This document shows positions 20,030 to 35,479 of a stretch of 64,000 bases of DNA, piece by piece. The DNA is from a virus. Taxonomy: Duplodnaviria > Heunggongvirae > Uroviricota > Caudoviricetes. Numbering within the stretch: position 1 is the first letter of the stretch; the number at the start of each line of letters is the position of its first letter. The translations under genes were made by a program, and so were the position numbers. The notes beneath the pieces were generated by a model. That model ran no database searches. It was not told where the DNA came from and saw only the letters and a program-made list of their open reading frames with translations. The DNA lies in the IMG/VR virus record IMGVR_UViG_2909314774_000001. The stretch is one strand, 5' to 3'.

Positions 20030-20551
20030 TTATTCTTCGAACAATTTTTCGATAGATTTTGTAGGATAGAACAAAGAACGCTCGTTGTTACCAACCAGCT
20101 GGATAAAGCCTAAACTTTTATAAAACGCCTTGGCTTTGTCATTTAACGCCTCAACGAAAAGTCCATGAATGCCTACAGCAAGAGATGCATTGTACACAAC
20201 GCGCATTGCATGTGTTACAAGCATTGAGCCAAATCCTTGACCTTGAAGGGACTTGTCCAAAGCCAGCCTACCCAAAGTAACACTTGGAACATTCCGATAA
20301 GGAACCTTCTTTTGTTTGCTTCTTGAAGGTAAGGACTCCTTTTCAAAACAACTACCTGACAAAGTGTAATATCCTAACACTTTTGGCCTTTCTTCTTGAG
20401 TGCAAAGCACATAAGCACGAAGAATTTTTCCCTCATGCTGCCTTTTTAAGTGGTTGGCTAAAAAGGCGTTTAGTGACTCTTCGCCGCAATCAAAACCGTT
20501 TAGATCATAATCTTTCTCTCCAGAGAAAATCTCTATCGTTGTATTGCTCAC
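20030..20551 (-). CDS. GNAT-family acetyltransferase toxin (TacT/KacT/AtaT-like)
   Basis: 173 aa with GNAT acetyl-CoA binding signature (LALDKSLQGQGFGSMLV); immediately downstream (8-nt gap) of a DUF1778-type RHH antitoxin gene. Confidence 0.75.
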   Translation of the reverse strand: MSNTTIEIFSGEKDYDLNGFDCGEESLNAFLANHLKRQHEGKILRAYVLCTQEERPKVLGYYTLSGSCFEKESLPSRSKQKKVPYRNVPSVTLGRLALDKSLQGQGFGSMLVTHAMRVVYNASLAVGIHGLFVEALNDKAKAFYKSLGFIQLVGNNERSLFYPTKSIEKLFEE

Positions 20552-20558
20552 GAGTAAA

Positions 20559-20828
20559 CTACTCCATGCTTTTCAGACGATCAGCAGCTCGTTTCAGCTT
20601 GTCGTTCGGTGCCGGAGGATTGCTTATAGCGTCCATAACCAGATTCCAGGATTCTTCATTCAGAACTAGTCTACGGTGTTGCTCTATAACTTTCACGGCA
20701 CGTTCAGATGCACTGCTAACCATAAACTGAGTAATGCTCTGGTTAGACATTGCGGCAGCTTCCTCGATGATGCTTTTATCGTCATCGGTTAATCTCAAAT
20801 CGATGCGCTGCTTTTTTAGTGCTGACAT
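20559..20828 (-). CDS. RHH antitoxin (TacA/KacA-like, DUF1778)
   Basis: ~89 aa from MSALKKQRIDLRLTDDDKSIIEEAA (AGGAGG RBS 6 nt upstream); N-terminal ribbon-helix-helix and C-terminal PAPN-type tail typical of antitoxins paired with GNAT toxins. Confidence 0.7.
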   Translation of the reverse strand: MSALKKQRIDLRLTDDDKSIIEEAAAMSNQSITQFMVSSASERAVKVIEQHRRLVLNEESWNLVMDAISNPPAPNDKLKRAADRLKSME

Positions 20829-21146
20829 GTATTCCTCCTGATGGCCGTGATGTAGGAAGGCCATCAATCTCCTCTGTTCAAACTGAGTTTTCGACTCAAA
20901 AATTACTTTAAAAGGCTATAGCCCATTACGTGTGCATTATCAAATTGTGTACGGCATATCACCGTACTTGTAATATAGAGGTCATTGTTACTTTTTTCAA
21001 CAGACAAATACAAGCTATGATTGCCAATTGTTAATCACAACCTACCATTTAACCTTTACACCGCAGCCGTAGGCATTTAGGCTATATCACATATAAGAAA
21101 ACAAGTTGTTTCAGACGATAATTATATACGCAAAGGGAACTCTCCA

Positions 21147-21815
21147 ATGACCAAGATCTTTGTGGTTGGCGGCACAAAGGGCGGGCCTGGCAAATCCACC
21201 GTTGCCCAGCAAATTGCCGTTTGCCTGAAAGTCAAAAAGAAGAAGAAGGTTTATATTACCGATATAGATATTCAGCGCACGACAACGAGCTGGTGTGAAG
21301 ACCGTCGACAGAACGAAGACCTTGAGCTGATTCCTTTTGCATACGTTCAGGATGACATCATTAAGCACCTAAAATCGCTTCAGGGTAGAGCTGAGTTTGT
21401 AGTGGTAGATGCCGGTGGCTTTGACTCCGAAATTCAGCGACAAGCGATGCTGATGGCTGACGTTATCATTATCCCGCTTCGTCCTAAGCGTCGTGATTTG
21501 AAATCTCTGCGTGACATTGATCCTATTATCGACAATGTTCGTAATGTAAACGATAAAGTGAAGGTCCGCGCGGTCATGAACCAGTGCCCGGCTTTGCCAT
21601 CACAAGTGTCTCGCATTCTGGCGGCTAAAGAGATTGTCGAGACGTTTGGCATCGAGTCTGCGCCAGTCAATCTATATAACCGCAACGTCTATGATGATGC
21701 GGAAGAGTCTGGTCGTTCTATCTTTGAAATGACCGGTAGCGAGCGCGACAAAAAGGCGGAAGCCGAGTTTGAAGAATTTGTAGATTATCTGTTGAGTCTG
21801 GAGGAAGAAGAATAA
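21147..21815 (+). CDS. ParA-type partition ATPase (small, deviant Walker A)
   Basis: VVGGTKGGPGKST deviant Walker A (KGGxGKS/T), 222 aa, followed by an overlapping small RHH protein. Confidence 0.8.
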   Translation: MTKIFVVGGTKGGPGKSTVAQQIAVCLKVKKKKKVYITDIDIQRTTTSWCEDRRQNEDLELIPFAYVQDDIIKHLKSLQGRAEFVVVDAGGFDSEIQRQAMLMADVIIIPLRPKRRDLKSLRDIDPIIDNVRNVNDKVKVRAVMNQCPALPSQVSRILAAKEIVETFGIESAPVNLYNRNVYDDAEESGRSIFEMTGSERDKKAEAEFEEFVDYLLSLEEEE

Positions 21816-22174
21816 TGTCCATGAAAATGGGTGACCTAGCAAAGCGCAAAGAGCCTGATGCACCGGCTAAGAACACAACTCCTTTGCGCCAACCAGTCAG
21901 ACCACAGGGACGCCCGACTCGTGGCAAAGAGAAAATTAAAAGCCGCACAATGTCACTGGAGGACGAATACTTCGAACTGCTGGAGATGATGAAGTTCATC
22001 CCTCGCTTCGAGAAATTCACCCGCTCTGATGTGATTCGTGCTGCTATTTTCCATCTTGCGGAGAAGACACCGCAGGAAATCGAGGACATCGTGAAACTTA
22101 ACGAGGCGATCACAGCTGCCGATGTCACGATGCGTACCGATGAAATTAAACGCGAGTTGATGAAGAAAGGGTGA
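21815..22174 (+). CDS. small centromere-binding partition protein (ParG-like RHH)
   Basis: 119 aa, start overlaps ParA stop; unstructured basic N-terminus and C-terminal RHH-like segment (SLEDEYFELLEMM...RSDVIRAAIFHL). Confidence 0.55.
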   Translation: MSMKMGDLAKRKEPDAPAKNTTPLRQPVRPQGRPTRGKEKIKSRTMSLEDEYFELLEMMKFIPRFEKFTRSDVIRAAIFHLAEKTPQEIEDIVKLNEAITAADVTMRTDEIKRELMKKG

Positions 22175-22225
22175 TTATATTGGGCGTTTGTTACGCCCAA
22201 TATATGAGTTGAAGGATAGACACCA

Positions 22226-23932
22226 ATGGAATCGATAGAAGTATTTTTAAAAAATTTTTTGGACTCAGATCATCGGGTTGCTGTCATAAAAGGAAATTGG
22301 GGAGTAGGTAAAACGCATTATTGGAATAGCTTTTATACTAAACATTCTAAAAAATTAGATTTTAATGCATATTCATATGTTTCTTTGTTTGGAATAAATT
22401 CTATTGGAGACATTAAAAAAGCTCTTTATCATTGTGCCACACCAATTAATGAAAAGAAATATAAAGAACTGATTTTATCTGAAACGGATCGAACTATGAT
22501 TCGTTATAGAAATGGGTTTTGGGGATGGTTGAAATACAACTCCTTGTCAAAATTTTTAATACATTTTGGAAAGAACGATTTTTTTGGGTTCAAAACTGAT
22601 AATCTGCTGTCATCTCTTGAGTATAAATTTGTTAATAATTATTTGGTTTGCATTGATGATATTGAACGAAAAGGTAGTGCGCTAGAAATTAAAGAGATTA
22701 TGGGGGTAATTGATGAGTTGGCAAGAAGAAAAAATTGCAAGGTTGTTCTAATATTAAATGAAGATAACTTACATGAAGAAACTGCACAACAACAGTTTTT
22801 AGAGTATAGAGAAAAAATAATTGATGTGGAAATAAAATACGATCCCACGCCTGAGAAAAACTTAAGAAAAGTTTTTTATGAGACTGACCCTGATTTTCTT
22901 TTGTTAAAAAACCTAGTAAATGATTTAAACATCAAAAACATTAGAATATTAAATAAAATAAAATCATCTCTAGTTATATTTAGAGATGTGCTAAAGTTAG
23001 CAGAGGATAAGGTTAGAGAAAGTTTTATTAATAGATTGGTCTTATTTTCAGTGGTTTACTATTTTGGTGTTCCTAGCGTTGATTATGCTTCATTTAAGGA
23101 GTCAATCAAAAATATACATGCATTCGACTATATGTTAGATGATAAAGATGAAAAGGAAGAAGTTAACTCTGTATATTCATTTGTTAATAGCCTTGATGTT
23201 ATTTATGAACGAGCAGAAAGTGCTTTCGATGATGATATAGATTTTTACCTTAAGAACGGTTATGTTTCTTCTGAAAGCAATATTCTAAATATAATAAAAG
23301 AAAAAAATGAACAATATAGAGATAATAGGGTTTTATGTGAGGTTTATAAAATTTGGGATGTTTTTAGAAACTCTTTTAAAGATAATGAATCAGAGTTTAT
23401 TTTTCAAATTGAGCGCGTAATTAACGATAGTCTGTTGCGTATACCAATTGGACAGTTCGTAGGTTTAATAAATGTCCTAATTAAATTGGATAGAGATTGT
23501 AATAATATTATAGAGGCATATGCAGATGCTTTTGTTAATAAAGAAAATGCGTATGCTACATTTAATTCTTTGCGAGTAGAGATCTTCGGAAATGAAGAAT
23601 TAGGTTTCAGAATTGAAAAAAAATTGAAAGATAGAAATCCAGATGACTATAACTTAGATAAAATTATAAAAAAAATAGCTGGTGGAAGATTTAACCATAG
23701 TGATGTGAATATTCTTAACAGTTTTTCTAAAGATGATTACGTAAACTGGATATTATCCTGTGATCAGGATGCTTTGAATTTAGTAGAAGAGACTATGCTC
23801 AAGTTCAAGGGTATGCAACACCCGACAGACGAACAGAAGAGCATCACTGATAAAGCAATAGAAGCTTTGGAGGAAGTTGCTTCAAAATCAACACTTAATA
23901 AGCTGCGTGTTAATAAAATACTCAATCATTAA
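22226..23932 (+). CDS. KAP-family-like P-loop NTPase in low-GC cargo region
   Basis: Walker A GNWGVGKT at residues ~23-30 and Walker B-like LVCIDDIER ~110 aa downstream (KAP NTPases typically hhhhDDLDR); gene is markedly AT-rich, with Asn/Lys/Ile-rich codon usage unlike its neighbours. Confidence 0.55.
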   Translation: MESIEVFLKNFLDSDHRVAVIKGNWGVGKTHYWNSFYTKHSKKLDFNAYSYVSLFGINSIGDIKKALYHCATPINEKKYKELILSETDRTMIRYRNGFWGWLKYNSLSKFLIHFGKNDFFGFKTDNLLSSLEYKFVNNYLVCIDDIERKGSALEIKEIMGVIDELARRKNCKVVLILNEDNLHEETAQQQFLEYREKIIDVEIKYDPTPEKNLRKVFYETDPDFLLLKNLVNDLNIKNIRILNKIKSSLVIFRDVLKLAEDKVRESFINRLVLFSVVYYFGVPSVDYASFKESIKNIHAFDYMLDDKDEKEEVNSVYSFVNSLDVIYERAESAFDDDIDFYLKNGYVSSESNILNIIKEKNEQYRDNRVLCEVYKIWDVFRNSFKDNESEFIFQIERVINDSLLRIPIGQFVGLINVLIKLDRDCNNIIEAYADAFVNKENAYATFNSLRVEIFGNEELGFRIEKKLKDRNPDDYNLDKIIKKIAGGRFNHSDVNILNSFSKDDYVNWILSCDQDALNLVEETMLKFKGMQHPTDEQKSITDKAIEALEEVASKSTLNKLRVNKILNH

Positions 23933-24113
23933 TAGATTATGACCTGCTTCCGTATGTATTTAATAAGTTACTTATTATTTGTATATACAGAAGCAGGTCT
24001 TTTAAAGACACCCACCAGAACAAGTCCCTTCCGTTTCCACTTCCAAAAACTGCCACCAGTCGCTATCATCCGCTCATTGTGATAAGTAAGTAACTACCTA
24101 CCAGGTGAGCCAC

Positions 24114-24854
24114 ATGAGCCAAATCTTTTTCGATACCATCGACAACGACCAGTACGACTTCATGACAGAGTGGAATACCGCTGTTATGGACAAGTGGGTT
24201 GCTGAAAACATTGGTTTGTCGCGCTGCAAAGACGAGGCTGAACTGTTTGAGACGAAGTGGTTTGATTACCGCGATATGCATCCTCTCATGGCCACCTGTC
24301 TGTTTACGGAGGCATACAAACGTCAGTACTCAAATATCATGCTGACGCACGGTCGTGAACACTTTGAAACAGCTCCGTTCACCACCGGGTTAAAACGCTT
24401 GCCTTATCAGGAGTTGTCGACTGCTAATAAAACGTCGCTATGGAAAGCACGCCAGTTTGCGGATCGCTATTGCTGCTCATACGACTACTTTATCTCCACT
24501 GTTCTTTCCGCAGCTGCACGACGTCTGTGGGACAAGCTGCCTCGCCCACAGCATTTGTGGCAGCCAGAACTGATTGAGATATTTGAAGAGAAATTAGCCA
24601 GACGCGCAACAACCCGTCTGGATGACTCTCTGGTTAGCTTTAAGCATATGGGAGACATGCAGTTCAACCCGATTCAGGAAAGCTATTTTGAGTGGATTCT
24701 GGAGCGTTTGCGCACCATCCCTCGCAGCAAGCGCATACGCGCAATTTTCTCCGCTATCTGGCTAATGGAAATCGTTCCAGAGCGCCTTATTTCCGACCAC
24801 TTTCCAGAAGAACTGGAAGAAGCACGGCGGTTTATTGATCCCCTATCTAATTAA
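24114..24854 (+). CDS. hypothetical protein
   Basis: ORF with backbone-like GC, preceded by the conserved intergenic TAAGTA motif; no recognisable domain. Confidence 0.4.
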   Translation: MSQIFFDTIDNDQYDFMTEWNTAVMDKWVAENIGLSRCKDEAELFETKWFDYRDMHPLMATCLFTEAYKRQYSNIMLTHGREHFETAPFTTGLKRLPYQELSTANKTSLWKARQFADRYCCSYDYFISTVLSAAARRLWDKLPRPQHLWQPELIEIFEEKLARRATTRLDDSLVSFKHMGDMQFNPIQESYFEWILERLRTIPRSKRIRAIFSAIWLMEIVPERLISDHFPEELEEARRFIDPLSN

Positions 24855-24897
24855 CTAATACTAGAAAACAATTTGTTTAAAAAACAAAGGAAAGCAC

Positions 24898-26238
24898 ATG
24901 ACCGAACTTTGCCATACAGGACGCGGGCTGTCCGAAGAGTTTGATGAAGATTTCCAGAACAGACTGACGGCATATTTTTGTCGTGATCACGAGTTTCTTA
25001 CTCGTGCGGGAGATCTGGTTGTGCCTAGCCAGTTTGCCAATGCGGCCAATGCCATATTGGTTAATATGGTTTCGGGCTATTACCGTATGTACAAGAGCGC
25101 GCCCTCTTCATCTGCAATTCTGGATATGCTTAAGCGTGCGAAACGCGATAAGACTATCCGTGAGGAACTATTCGCCGATGTTGTTGCTGCGTTTAAGCGC
25201 ATTCTTGCAGAAAAATTGTCCGATACCTCGTACATGGTTGACCAGGTATCAACCTTCGCAAAAAGTGTAGCGTTTGATGATGCTCTGATTAAGGCTGCTG
25301 AACTGAAAGAGAAAGGCGACTTTCAGGGGGCGATGGCAATCATGGCCAAGGTTCAGCAGATTGGATCGAACGAAGCGACCGGAATCTATGACTACTACAC
25401 CTCCGCAAGTGAGCGATTGAAAGCGCGTGAATATGAGGCTTCAGAGGAGTATGTACCAAACAGTATTACAACTGGACTCCCTCTTCTCGATAGGTTGCTG
25501 TACCAAAAAGGCTGGGCAAAGCGCGAAATGGTGCTCTTCATGGGGTTCGCTAAATCCGGTAAATCGACCGCAATGGGTGAGTTTTCCATAAACGCAACGC
25601 TTGCTGGCTACAATGTTCTGTATCTCTCGCTGGAGGTTCACACCACCATTTTATCCGACCGTTTTGATGCAAGATTGTCGGAGACAGAAATGTCCAAGCT
25701 GGTGGAACGGCGCGATGAGGTTCATCGTAAGTTGGCAGAGTTGGGAGCCACGAAGGGGATTGGTAGTTTGTGGGTGGTTGAGCGTCCGTCAGGAAGTATG
25801 TCACCGGCAGATCTGGACCGTATGCTTAACAGCATGAAAGCCAACGGCATGGTACCTGACATGGTTGTTGTCGACTACGCAGATTTGATGCGTGCCAGTT
25901 ATGACCTTCGTGATGATCGCGCCAACATTCGTAGTATCTACACCGATTTACGTGCTCTTTATGACAAGCATAACGTTGCTGGGATCACGGCATCGCAGAC
26001 AAACCGTGAAGGTGGAGCGTCAGAAGTTGCCACAATGATGCACGCTGCCGACAACATCGAAAAAGTACGTATTGCTGACCTGGTAATAACGATCAACAAA
26101 ACCGAAGAAGAAGAAGCGAAAGGAGAGGCTCGTCTCTACTTTGCTGGTTCACGTAACCAGCAGGGAGGGATCAGCATTCGCGTTAAACAAAACCTCGAAC
26201 AAATGCGCTTCATTGAGCGAATCTTAGACGTTACCTAA
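24898..26238 (+). CDS. DnaB-like replicative DNA helicase (RecA-fold)
   Basis: Walker A FMGFAKSGKST followed by SLEV and VVVDYADLM Walker B-like motifs, as in DnaB/T7 gp4 helicase domains; conserved AAAGGAAAGCACATG start context. Confidence 0.7.
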   Translation: MTELCHTGRGLSEEFDEDFQNRLTAYFCRDHEFLTRAGDLVVPSQFANAANAILVNMVSGYYRMYKSAPSSSAILDMLKRAKRDKTIREELFADVVAAFKRILAEKLSDTSYMVDQVSTFAKSVAFDDALIKAAELKEKGDFQGAMAIMAKVQQIGSNEATGIYDYYTSASERLKAREYEASEEYVPNSITTGLPLLDRLLYQKGWAKREMVLFMGFAKSGKSTAMGEFSINATLAGYNVLYLSLEVHTTILSDRFDARLSETEMSKLVERRDEVHRKLAELGATKGIGSLWVVERPSGSMSPADLDRMLNSMKANGMVPDMVVVDYADLMRASYDLRDDRANIRSIYTDLRALYDKHNVAGITASQTNREGGASEVATMMHAADNIEKVRIADLVITINKTEEEEAKGEARLYFAGSRNQQGGISIRVKQNLEQMRFIERILDVT

Positions 26239-32481: not shown

Positions 32482-33744
32482 TTACTTTGCATAGTCGCCC
32501 AATTTTAATATTTCGCGCTTATATTCATTAACCATGCTACTGGATTCAGTATAAATTCGATTTAAAAGATTATCGTTATCTTTATTTTCATTTATCTTAA
32601 TTAGTGCTAATTTATATTCATAGTCATCAAATGCCACAATTAAATGGTGGCCTGGGATTATATCTTCGTCACTCTTAAAGTATATATCTTCAAGTATGTA
32701 ATCTAGTTGATTAGATTTTCTTTTCTCGATGTAATCTTCAGCCATAGCTATTACATCATTCCTGTCATTTAACCTGTTTTTTTCGGAAGGCACATCTTCG
32801 TAATGTTGCACGATTGAACAACCAATAAGGCGTGGGATGTAAACGTCAAAATGAGTAACTCTATCATTCGCGGTTTTAAGTAGTTCCTCAAAGTAGTTTC
32901 TTACATGTAAAGGCAACTTCTCAAAGTAATCATTAATTATAGGAGAACAAGGAGTTTTATAATTCATAAGAACCGACGGTACGAGCTTTGGGTGTCGAAA
33001 CATCCAGTCCCTTTTAACGTCCGATGGAACATAATAACTTTTAATGATATTATCAAAATAATTTATCATTCGAGATTTGAATATTTTGTTGAATCTAAGG
33101 TTTATGAATGTATCCAGATAAGGCATATTTGAATAAGCATCATCAAAAAATATTTCATCATTGAAAAAATCATATTTATTCAATAAACAACACAGTTTTT
33201 CCGAATTAATATGTTCACAATAATCGATTTTTAATCCAAAGATAGCAATGATCAACTTCATCTGAGGTGGGATTTTAAAAATTAATTGTGACACATACGC
33301 TCTTTTTTCCTTGAGACATTCCCCATCAATATAAAATGAACCATCCACATACTCAAATATATTAATAATATGCTTCACATACTGTATTACCTCATGCTGT
33401 CTTACCAATGGGTAATATAGTCTATGTAACTCATCGCTGTTTAAATTAATTTTGTGTTTATCGATAATTTGTTTTGCAAGAAGACATAACTCATCATGTT
33501 GATTTAATAAGGAATCAAACCATTGTTTAAATGCACTCTTTCGCATTTCGAACAATGATTCAGTTGTTAATTGAAGGGCTGAAAAAGCTGCTTTTGCACT
33601 TTTTCTCGCTTCGTAGGCATTCCATGCTGTTGCTATAAAAGCAAATGCTGTAGCCAATGTTCCAACAGTTTGACCATTTAAAACAACCCAATCCCAAAAA
33701 ATGACGGTGAGCAGTAGTATAATAATGAAAATTAAAAAAGGCAT
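32482..33744 (-). CDS. membrane-anchored protein of unknown function in low-GC cargo region (abortive-infection-like candidate)
   Basis: 420 aa; two N-terminal hydrophobic helices (FLIFIIILLLTVIFWDWVV, GTLATAFAFIATAW) then a large Asn/Tyr/Asp-rich soluble domain; opposite strand to neighbours, AT-rich, own promoter region and terminator. Confidence 0.5.
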   Translation of the reverse strand: MPFLIFIIILLLTVIFWDWVVLNGQTVGTLATAFAFIATAWNAYEARKSAKAAFSALQLTTESLFEMRKSAFKQWFDSLLNQHDELCLLAKQIIDKHKINLNSDELHRLYYPLVRQHEVIQYVKHIINIFEYVDGSFYIDGECLKEKRAYVSQLIFKIPPQMKLIIAIFGLKIDYCEHINSEKLCCLLNKYDFFNDEIFFDDAYSNMPYLDTFINLRFNKIFKSRMINYFDNIIKSYYVPSDVKRDWMFRHPKLVPSVLMNYKTPCSPIINDYFEKLPLHVRNYFEELLKTANDRVTHFDVYIPRLIGCSIVQHYEDVPSEKNRLNDRNDVIAMAEDYIEKRKSNQLDYILEDIYFKSDEDIIPGHHLIVAFDDYEYKLALIKINENKDNDNLLNRIYTESSSMVNEYKREILKLGDYAK

Positions 33745-33918
33745 GTATGTATTTCACTCTACTAACTATAAAATATTAGGCTAATGTTAACCAAACAATG
33801 CCTTAATTAATAGATTGATCGAGGCTTTAATAGCTTTATAATGCAGATTGCAAAGATAAGTATGCACACACCTATCTTCTTTGTAAGTAAAGTTGCATAT
33901 CAATTCTATGAGGTAACA

Positions 33919-34164
33919 ATGACAATCACTATCTACGGACGAGATAACTGCTCATACTGCAAACGTGCGGTCGAGCTGGCGAAGCAACTAAAGGGACATG
34001 GCTACGGTGATTATGAGTACATCGACATCACTACTGCCGGTATCGACAAGGAAAAACTTAGTGAAATTGTTGGTAAACCGGTAGAGACTATCCCCCAAGT
34101 ACTGATCGATGGTCAACCGATTGGCGGATACACAGAACTGGCTGCATACGTCAGCACCCTCTGA
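33919..34164 (+). CDS. glutaredoxin-like protein (NrdH/Grx type)
   Basis: MTITIYGRDNCSYCKRA with CxxC active site and GGY..L C-terminal motif of glutaredoxins; GAGG RBS; followed by hairpin terminator 34169-34194 (AACGGCTC-ACAG-GAGCCGTT + T-run). Confidence 0.75.
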   Translation: MTITIYGRDNCSYCKRAVELAKQLKGHGYGDYEYIDITTAGIDKEKLSEIVGKPVETIPQVLIDGQPIGGYTELAAYVSTL

Positions 34165-34375: not shown

Positions 34376-35479
34376 ATGAAAAATAGCTTTGACAGAGCAC
34401 GCGCTGCGGAGAACACCTCAAAAGAGGCGATAGAGTATCTCGAAAGAGCATCTCAAATGCAGGCCGTTATGATCTCCCAGGTCAGCAATGACATGAGATT
34501 CTCGGACGCATTCATGTTATTCACTCGCTTATCTCTGCTGATAACCAGACGTCGGCCAGAGATCGCTGTTCATTGTATTTTGATACATGTTTTGCCGCAC
34601 ATTGCCGATGTAAAAGTAAGTGACATTAATAGGTTCATGGTGAACCAACTGGTCAACCCACTAATACTGGATGGCAAAATTGTTATGGGCCGCCGCGTTT
34701 TCTCTCTGATGAAGCAGTTCCTTAGCTGGTGCGCCTTCCAGGGGATGATAGACGTGTCACCGTTAAACGATATGTCACTTAACAAAGTTGCCGGTGGCGC
34801 AAAGCCCACACCTCGCGAGCGGAAGCTGACCGACGCAGAGGTATGGGTGTTCTGGAATATATGGGACTACTTCAATGTGTGTGCTGGTACAAAATGGGCG
34901 GCCAGGCTATGTCTTGTATCCGCAAGACGACCTGACGAAGTACTGCGGGCTAAAAAAAGTGAGTTCAATCTTAAGCGTGGGGTTTGGAATCAAGGCAAGA
35001 GGAACAAATCTGCCCGTGAGCATTCTCTGCCTTTAAGCTCATTAATGCGCACTTGTATTGAAGAGTTGTTCGAATATGGTAAAGACAGCCAGTGGCTCGT
35101 GCCTTCGAATAAAAAAATCGGGAAAGACCTTCCTATGTCTAAAGTGGCAATAGCCCAGGCATTACGTCGTATTCTGGAACGACCAGAACTGATGGAGCTT
35201 GAGCCATTTACACCCCGAGATTTGCGCCGTACTGCGCGTAGTTACTTCCCAGCATTAGGCATAAGCCAGGAGGTATCACGTAAAATCATGAACCACAGTC
35301 TTGAGGGGATAGATCGGGTCTACGACCGGCACGATTATATGGACGAGATGCGAGACGCCTTAGAAAGTTTCTCGACGTACATCGCATCAATCGTAGAGCA
35401 ACCGGATTTAGACGAAATTGACCACAAATTTAAGGGAGATCGTCTATCAACAGAGCTTATTCGTGTAAATTTTTCATAG
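34376..35479 (+). CDS. tyrosine site-specific recombinase
   Basis: C-terminal catalytic region with LVSARRPDEVL (box I Arg), PRDLRRTARS (box II) and IMNHSLEGIDRVYDRHDY (HxxxxxxxxY, Tyr nucleophile). N-terminal region unusual, start uncertain. Confidence 0.7.
   Translation: MKNSFDRARAAENTSKEAIEYLERASQMQAVMISQVSNDMRFSDAFMLFTRLSLLITRRRPEIAVHCILIHVLPHIADVKVSDINRFMVNQLVNPLILDGKIVMGRRVFSLMKQFLSWCAFQGMIDVSPLNDMSLNKVAGGAKPTPRERKLTDAEVWVFWNIWDYFNVCAGTKWAARLCLVSARRPDEVLRAKKSEFNLKRGVWNQGKRNKSAREHSLPLSSLMRTCIEELFEYGKDSQWLVPSNKKIGKDLPMSKVAIAQALRRILERPELMELEPFTPRDLRRTARSYFPALGISQEVSRKIMNHSLEGIDRVYDRHDYMDEMRDALESFSTYIASIVEQPDLDEIDHKFKGDRLSTELIRVNFS

Follow-up and report, generated by a model that had tools for sequence, protein, structure and literature searches.

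Single-gene KAP NTPases in phage defence

Nucleoside triphosphatases (NTPases) of the KAP family that serve as single-gene defence systems, and the hotspots in temperate elements where such genes reside, are already known. To our knowledge, the single-protein KAP defences Tmn, EF_KAP, and Reve have only now been validated, and we know of no established mechanism for any of them. Analysed here is a gene of this family (referred to below as the KAP gene) from the IMG/VR record IMGVR_UViG_2909314774_000001, by its sequence an SSU5-like phage-plasmid of Escherichia coli; the window is the whole stretch of 64,000 nucleotides that was examined. The gene most probably (roughly 60%) codes for a soluble, stand-alone anti-phage KAP NTPase and represents exchangeable cargo in a defence hotspot at the par operon of the phage-plasmid. 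This reading is favoured because the same slot elsewhere holds genes that match validated defence families and because the NTPase module shares homology with the one in Reve, a validated defence. The original prediction, made by a model from the letters alone, had proposed a candidate stand-alone defence NTPase, and as a candidate this proposal is sound, the defence activity itself being predicted.

Reve, the closest validated relative found, is a single-gene KAP/AAA defence from hotspots in P4 satellites (construct pFD425) that reduces the plating of several Drexlerviridae by up to ∼10^5-fold and has the ORC ATPase module as its top Foldseek match (10.64898/2026.02.27.708500). Comparison with the Reve sequence, taken from the supplement of the same preprint, showed that both proteins are encoded by single genes of similar size and composition (586 versus 568 amino acids [aa]; G+C content [GC] of 0.297 versus 0.293), lack a transmembrane insert, and carry the P-loop ∼25 residues from the N terminus. 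They share the motifs GxWGVGKT...Y(V/I)S(L/V)xG(I/L)NS, hhIDDLER, xxEKV(I/V)xxE, and NIRxxN, and alignment of the KAP-gene family with the Reve family using hhalign gave a probability of 98.7% (E = 4e-16) over the NTPase module and its lid (residues 2-261 versus 4-240). Both match the PADLOC family PDC-S49, have the same top Foldseek match (ORC), and are encoded as hotspot cargo of temperate mobile elements, the carriers being P4 satellites for Reve and SSU5-like phage-plasmids for the KAP gene. In contrast, BLASTP aligned only 65 residues (31% identity), the C-terminal stretches scored below zero in hmmsearch, and the Reve search yielded 48 proteins, none of which belonged to the KAP-gene family. 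Reve has been validated experimentally, whereas the KAP-gene family is a predicted defence.

PDC-S49 is the only PADLOC family that was matched at E ≤ 1, with its three models giving E values of 1.6e-21, 3.2e-15, and 6.6e-13. The best match extends over profile positions 8-325 of 624, and a second model is matched over positions 138-389 of 629; the models (619-629 positions) describe a single-gene candidate of similar length. PDC-S49 was predicted as a phage defence candidate from its embedding in BREX, DISARM, and type I restriction-modification loci (10.1101/2024.01.29.577857). None of the nine contexts examined here contained such a locus, no systematic search having been made, and a literature search by the name PDC-S49 found no paper.

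PifA of plasmid F, which is responsible for T7 exclusion, is the founding bacterial member of the KAP family and, similarly to the protein studied here, a plasmid-borne KAP P-loop NTPase with the same layout from Walker A to Walker B. However, direct comparison (BLASTP E = 0.15; hhalign probability of 47%) rules it out as the closest relative and leaves it as a superfamily relative only. PifA is longer (741 aa), has an unrelated C-terminal part, and comes with the repressor PifC, whereas there is no pifC-like neighbour at the KAP gene. It matches its own PADLOC model at E = 2.9e-290, as well as QatA and PDC-S20, while the KAP protein matches none of these and has no PifA match at E ≤ 1. QatA of the qatABCD system was likewise rejected: its model, which must have been in the PADLOC library because PifA matches it, was not matched at E ≤ 1, and the neighbours are parAB and replication genes, not qatBCD.

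Tmn (Gao et al. 2020) and EF_KAP resemble the KAP protein in being single-protein KAP NTPase defences but differ in their transmembrane helices, which are found within the NTPase domain in Tmn, at the N terminus in EF_KAP, and nowhere in the KAP protein. The EF_KAP proteins, transmembrane KAP fusions that protect Enterococcus and require Walker B, have a C-terminal region of ∼320 aa without a known domain (PMC12632615). STAND NTPases, such as Avs4, Avs5, RdrA, and plant NLRs, differ from the KAP protein, which has no N-terminal effector domain; assignment to this group was rejected, as the Pfam nSTAND3 score of 19.6 bits falls below the cut-off of 27.2 and the sequence signature is that of KAP.

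The KAP gene and its product

The gene and the parts of its product are located in the window as follows.

22226..23932, plus strand: KAP-family P-loop NTPase gene (568 aa, ATG start, GC 0.293)
22212..22216, plus strand: ribosome-binding site AAGGA, read from the sequence, 9 nt 5' of the ATG of the KAP gene
22226..22999, plus strand: NTPase module with helical lid, residues 1-258
22292..22315, plus strand: Walker A motif GNWGVGKT, residues 23-30
22640..22669, plus strand: Walker B motif YLVCIDDIER, residues 139-148
22739..22957, plus strand: further conserved NTPase motifs CKVVLILNE (C171, K172, N178), YREKIID (Y194, R195, E196, K197, D200), and KNIRILNKIK (N238, R240, K244)
23000..23929, plus strand: C-terminal all-helical domain, residues 259-568 (∼310 aa)

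Residues 18-258 match positions 22-282 (of 293) of the Pfam profile KAP_NTPase (PF07693) with 25.8 bits against a cut-off of 20, and the full-length protein matches phrog_4740 (E = 9e-165). Nearly all of the 120 listed homologues have a precomputed PF07693 match, and no housekeeping ATPase family emerged from the profile searches. The family has already been annotated, as "P-loop NTPase fold protein," as phrog_4740, and in part as PDC-S49. The KAP signature, reportedly described by Aravind et al. 2004, combines a Walker A motif GxxGxGK[ST] with a Walker B motif of the hhhhDD[LI][DE]R type, and GNWGVGKT together with LVCIDDIER (residues 140-148) fits it. These two motifs, which the original prediction had picked out in the 568-aa open reading frame (ORF), are indeed present and proved to be invariant in an alignment of 40 homologues. 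The invariant residues in that alignment are G23, W25, G26, G28, K29, and T30 of Walker A; Y139, C142, D144, D145, E147, and R148 of Walker B; C171, K172, Y194, R195, E196, K197, D200, N238, R240, and K244 elsewhere in the NTPase module; and G345, W508, N558, and R561 in the C-terminal domain, with N178 conserved in at least 90% of the sequences.

According to an AlphaFold2 model built with an alignment (pLDDT of 84 for the whole protein and 88 for residues 260-568 alone), the protein is predicted to consist of an AAA+/STAND-like core and a conserved helical C-terminal domain of ∼310 aa, a domain whose presence is expected from KAP-family membership. The top Foldseek match, the ORC ATPase module, was accompanied by RFC and Avs4; no known fold matched the C-terminal domain, and a sequence search of solved structures with the family profile produced no match at E ≤ 1. 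In the predicted structure, R195 ends the helix that precedes the last core strand, and R240 is located in the lid; by analogy, these would be the places where AAA+ proteins put the arginine finger and sensor 2. Judging from predicted secondary-structure positions, the conserved motifs can be tentatively assigned to sensor 1, the arginine finger, and sensor 2.

Many KAP proteins, as described for Tmn, have two or four transmembrane helices inserted between Walker A and Walker B, but the KAP protein has no hydrophobic segment in this stretch (residues 30-139) and none predicted to span the membrane; residues 98-125 are hydrophilic and modelled with low confidence, and the highest 19-residue Kyte-Doolittle mean (1.6) is at residue 403, within the folded C-terminal domain. 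Such an insert is not universal in the KAP family, since PifA and Reve also lack these segments. The region following the NTPase module had been described as long and rich in Asn, Lys, and Asp, but the enrichment is only mild (N 9.4%, K 8.4%, and D 9.4%), and the region is a conserved, folded helical domain rather than a low-complexity sequence.

Full-length homologues of 560-620 aa retrieved in a word-indexed search include a second E. coli/Shigella allele (76% identity), proteins from Salmonella (42%) and Klebsiella (38%), and chromosomal or metagenomic proteins with 28-35% identity from Shewanella, Pragia, Oleispira, Pseudomonas, and others. A profile search against 1.84 billion cluster representatives (50% identity) recovered 1652 clusters with E ≤ 1e-30. 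Most of the best 150 matches are 530-610 aa long and align almost end to end; the others are truncated and hence shorter, and none has an added domain. Mean pairwise identity across the family is 0.47 in the NTPase module and 0.30-0.35 in the remainder. Proteins of SPbeta-like Bacillus phages, Burkholderia phages, and Campylobacter CJIE4 prophages (H202-H211) match only the first 200-230 residues (28-31% identity), which suggests that in temperate phages of distant hosts the NTPase motor may be joined to other C-terminal domains.

A cargo slot at the end of the par operon

The KAP gene is located, as originally described, between the partition locus and the replication genes, with the parB-like gene to its left and orf249 and the DnaB-like helicase gene to its right.

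21147-21815, plus strand: parA, left slot flank
21815-22174, plus strand: parB-like gene, left slot flank, abutting the cassette
22175..23940, plus strand: cargo cassette, from the parB stop to the left arm of the backbone terminator, delimited by the junctions of eight slot states
24105-24854, plus strand: orf249, right slot flank
24898-26238, plus strand: DnaB-like helicase gene, right slot flank

Among 5426 complete E. coli genomes, 259 match this par-rep region, always on plasmids, and the KAP gene is present in 27 of the 259 (∼10%), in each case on a plasmid of ∼110 kb. The gene is accordingly not universal in related elements, and complete E. coli genomes show at least eight states of the slot between parB and the conserved terminator: the KAP gene and the following seven.

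255-aa GIY-YIG protein, minus strand (L004): PADLOC PD-T4-3, E = 1.3e-23
DUF2971 protein, plus strand (Cyrano, L002): PDC-S31, E = 3e-41
DUF2971 protein with a 390-aa protein (L014): PD-T7-5, E = 1.4e-139
352-aa protein, minus strand (L003:2736-3794): no PADLOC and no Pfam match
225-aa protein, minus strand (L013:1267-1944): no PADLOC match
copy interrupted by IS3 (H136): from annotation only
empty slot, ∼200 bp from parB to orf249 (L012)

Among the 54 rows of an evenly spaced sample that match both flanks, the PD-T4-3-like gene was found 15 times, the 352-aa gene 8 times, the 225-aa gene 8 or 9 times, and the KAP gene 7 times, followed by DUF2971 alone (5), DUF2971 with the PD-T7-5-like gene (4), the empty slot (4, or ∼7%), and other arrangements (2). 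As in the P2/P4 hotspots, the slot is a fixed position between backbone genes at which unrelated cargo types, known defence genes among them, exclude one another, and this is what defines a defence hotspot. The PD-T4-3 and PD-T7-5 families are reportedly among the experimentally validated defences of Vassallo et al. 2022. Both families were also found in a DefenseFinder survey of SSU5-like elements (10.1101/2025.09.12.675607). The site is therefore of the type suspected from the outset, one where defence functions gather, with PD-T4-3-like, PD-T7-5-like, and DUF2971/PDC-S31 genes as alternatives to the KAP gene. By position, the 352-aa and 225-aa occupants, which together fill ∼30% of the sampled slots, are candidate new defence genes. 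What is defined here is a defence hotspot of SSU5-like phage-plasmids, at the 3' end of the par operon and bounded by a conserved terminator.

The composition of the KAP gene sets it apart from its surroundings, in agreement with the original prediction of a much more AT-rich gene: its GC of 0.293 (0.234 at third codon positions) compares with 0.47-0.50 for parA, parB, orf249, dnaB, and the primase gene, and it forms the lowest-GC 1.7-kb stretch in the window (z = -5.6 versus non-overlapping windows). Homologous genes are AT-rich in all hosts compared (GC 0.27-0.35). The start context AAAGGAAAAACACATG, which recurs in the window as 3 exact copies and 4 copies with 1-2 mismatches, all on the plus strand, is likewise absent at the start of the KAP gene, as had been noticed; 7 matches were reached in 0 of 100 shuffles, the chance expectation being ∼1. 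Judging by its recurrence, AAAGGAAAAACACATG is a common translation-initiation or regulatory context of backbone genes.

26307, 38614, 40030, 46049, 51124, 55350, and 62388, plus strand: copies of AAAGGAAAAACACATG

Slot borders

Sequence common to all eight slot states stops in the last codons of parB and restarts at a large hairpin. The two hairpins of this region had been placed correctly within a few bases, but only one of them belongs to the cargo.

22176..22204, plus strand: small GC hairpin after the parB stop, cargo-linked
23941..24003, plus strand: large backbone hairpin with T-run, right slot border

The small hairpin (arms 22176-22187 and 22193-22204, a perfect 12-bp stem closed by a 5-nt loop, -17.9 kcal/mol) lacks a clear T-run and lies ∼20 nt from the start codon of the KAP gene. 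It travels with the cargo, since the hairpin found here differs from one alternative cargo to the next and is missing from the empty slot; the KAP cassettes of Klebsiella and Salmonella also have a hairpin of their own after parB, followed by a T-run. Between parB and the KAP gene, the small hairpin probably acts as a leaky terminator or attenuator.

The large hairpin (arms 23941-23958 and 23982-23999, 18 nt each, 89% complementary, followed by TTTT, -28.3 kcal/mol) had also been taken as a bracket of the cargo. It is a backbone feature instead, because it is found in every slot state, including the empty one, and is retained in the Klebsiella and Salmonella elements, where its left arm shows G-U pairing and compensating changes. 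Most simply, it would be the intrinsic terminator of a transcription unit consisting of par plus cargo. Within the GC-rich outer stem, there is an AT-rich inner palindrome (TAATAAGT/ACTTATTA), and after the hairpin comes a direct repeat with imperfect copies, CTTTTAAAGACACCCACCAG at 23999 and CTTCCAAAAACTGCCACCAG at 24040. The entire segment 23941-24104, just 5' of the first gene of the replication region, is conserved across the E. coli, Klebsiella, and Salmonella elements and could be more than a terminator, e.g., an operator, a centromere-like site, or an origin-related site.

Several small ORFs in or near the KAP gene (69 aa at 22639-22848 and 53 aa at 23764-23925, both on the minus strand, and 47 aa at 23939-24082 on the plus strand) were rejected as spurious products of the AT-rich DNA; in the empty-slot sequence, other nucleotides stand in place of the ATG of the 47-aa ORF, leaving it without a start. 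An Rfam scan of positions 20800-24900 at E ≤ 1 gave only chance-level matches, and the cassette therefore has no RNA gene or riboswitch.

Contexts elsewhere and divergence of the alleles

The homologues from Klebsiella and Salmonella (38-42% identity) occupy the identical slot of SSU5-like elements in these hosts, between parA/parB and a 241-aa gene that is accompanied by the DnaB and primase genes. A translated search of PLSDB returned 125 records, including Klebsiella (75), Escherichia (20), Salmonella (2), and Citrobacter (2), as well as distant full-length relatives on plasmids of Nostoc, Legionella, and rhizobia. In six other genomic contexts, the gene is found next to an S24-type repressor gene (a Pseudomonas prophage), in a Mu-like prophage, next to an OLD-like TOPRIM ATPase gene (Shewanella), next to IS66 and a T5orf172 gene (Oleispira), alone among housekeeping genes (Pragia), and amid hypothetical genes (a metagenome contig). 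No partner gene recurs across these six, and the KAP gene can therefore be expected to work alone or with host factors. A horizontally acquired single-gene unit, as originally proposed, agrees with the foreign composition and the lack of a partner; a one-off acquisition does not, since the Klebsiella and Salmonella homologues share the slot.

The allele of the window (allele 1) was compared with allele 2, from NZ_CP085184. In the flanking genes (parA, parB, orf249, and dnaB), nucleotide identity is mostly 94-100%, with synonymous divergence (dS) of 0.06-0.23 and ratios of nonsynonymous to synonymous divergence (dN/dS) of 0.0-0.05. The respective values are 86-98%, 0.36, and 0.16 in the NTPase module (residues 1-258) and 68-75%, 0.95, and 0.29 in the last 180 codons (residues 391-568), with dN/dS of up to 0.46 in the last sliding window. 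For the gene in its entirety, dN/dS amounts to 0.23 and dS to 0.55. The dN/dS of 0.23 between E. coli alleles indicates a real protein under purifying selection, while dS far above that of the backbone points to old alleles that have been exchanged by recombination.

Constraint is weakest at the C-terminal end of the protein. Positive selection for its divergence was considered and is unsupported, as dN/dS stays below 0.5 and dS is much higher there too; because of this raised dS, the divergence fits old alleles and mosaic recombination. The gradient along the sequence also fits the combination of a conserved motor with a more variable domain that might serve for recognition.

The exact allele-2 protein (P0006; L021-L023) was found in 1142 blocks of an assembly index, mostly contigs of 50-200 kb; one source was named Shigella sonnei, and the slot is the same. 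In a DefenseFinder survey, no defence system was reported for the very common SSU5-like lineage of S. sonnei (10.1101/2025.09.12.675607). If the allele-2 contigs belong to the S. sonnei outbreak-associated lineage, this lineage would carry a defence gene that is missed by current tools.

Possible mode of action and alternative explanations

For an anti-phage NTPase, the following sequence of events can be conjectured. In the plasmid (lysogenic) state, the KAP gene would be transcribed at a low level from the par promoter, parAB being its probable transcription source, and the protein level would be low because transcription has to read through the weak hairpin. The variable C-terminal helical domain, acting as a specificity or sensor domain, might recognise a component of the infecting phage and turn the NTPase into an NTP-bound oligomer. 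This NTP-driven oligomer might itself block the infection by binding or remodelling a phage protein or a DNA complex, a direct block being proposed because no effector domain was found. Alleles and alternative genes would be swapped between co-resident phage-plasmids, with the 3' end of parB and the conserved terminator as recombination arms.

Several observations weigh against the anti-phage interpretation. The hotspot argument is one of guilt by association: neither the 352-aa nor the 225-aa occupant carries a defence annotation, and the adjacent toxin-antitoxin pair indicates that the region also houses non-defence cargo. Homology to Reve ends at the NTPase module, leaving the C-terminal 300 residues unaligned in hhalign. 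PDC-S49, itself only a candidate, covers residues 3-326 or 135-377, so that the last 190 residues are unmatched. No recognisable effector domain was found in the protein, and the blocking step is conjectural. Finally, a promoter scan identified a single plus-strand sigma-70-like site upstream of the gene, at 21021-21048 before parA, and none between the par promoter region and the KAP gene, whose transcription by read-through is an assumption.

The most probable alternative, unlikely as it is, assigns the protein to competition between mobile elements and not to defence against lytic phages; as an exclusion or incompatibility factor, it would block the replication or establishment of incoming related phage-plasmids or plasmids, in the manner of an ORC/Cdc6/TnsC-like DNA-binding ATPase. 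It is a little harder to accept that the gene protects nothing and is carried as neutral or selfish cargo, be it a toxic ATPase of the addiction type, an AT-rich remnant that has been silenced, or a gene for the phage's own lytic cycle. Foreign AT-rich genes are commonly silenced, the toxin-antitoxin pair kacAT occupies the variable slot next door, and the ∼7% of sampled slots that are empty make the KAP gene dispensable. However, the gene is under purifying selection across its whole length, its NTPase motifs are invariant, the full-length architecture is kept in most of the best 150 profile matches, and no antitoxin-like partner was seen in any context examined. A role as a partition or replication accessory, i.e., a housekeeping ATPase of the phage-plasmid, might be read from the co-orientation with parAB and the replication genes and from the ORC/Cdc6-like fold, but it is very improbable and largely refuted by the presence/absence pattern: the gene is missing from ∼90% of E. 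coli SSU5-like elements, whose par and rep genes are nearly identical, and in these the slot is empty or contains unrelated genes in either orientation. Its composition is foreign to the backbone, and it has homologues in chromosomes and integrated prophages without par or rep genes nearby.

Returning to the anti-phage NTPase, a bolder and unlikely version of it would make the protein a complete, effector-less immune machine. Once the helical domain has sensed an invader, the protein would oligomerise with NTP in the manner of ORC/Cdc6 or TnsC, either on DNA or on a complex for replication or packaging, and would block its target directly. If so, the location between par and rep would reflect the exclusion of competing replicons (phages and rival phage-plasmids), allele swapping in the C-terminal domain would set the specificity, and the defence would operate without a nuclease, NADase, or membrane effector. 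The KAP-gene family is large and soluble, has no recognisable effector, and includes natural allele pairs with differing C-terminal domains. Because of these last three properties, it lends itself to the study of how a phage can be stopped by an NTPase that carries no more than a helical domain.

The host element and neighbouring islands

The relatives of the phage-plasmid in the window include phage Cyrano/pLF82, phage CMS-2020a, and the 109-kb plasmid of the O104:H4 strain 2009EL-2050. The local gene order is lysis genes, kacAT, parA, the parB-like gene, the KAP gene, orf249, and the genes for the DnaB-like helicase and primase.

A toxin-antitoxin pair of the kacT/kacA type (a GNAT acetyltransferase toxin and a TacA-like antitoxin; 20030-20867, minus strand, GC 0.40-0.46) is encoded upstream of parA. 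This region is variable: the match of NZ_CP031136 to the window begins at ∼21040, and two unrelated hypothetical genes are found there instead. The kacAT position thus looks like a second swappable slot, to the left of the par operon.

A second AT-rich island, with GC of 0.32 over 33-34 kb, contains a 420-aa ORF (32482-33744, minus strand) that has no match in Pfam or PADLOC. It adjoins a glutaredoxin-like gene (33841-34164) and a tyrosine-integrase-like gene (34376-35479) and may be another cargo gene.

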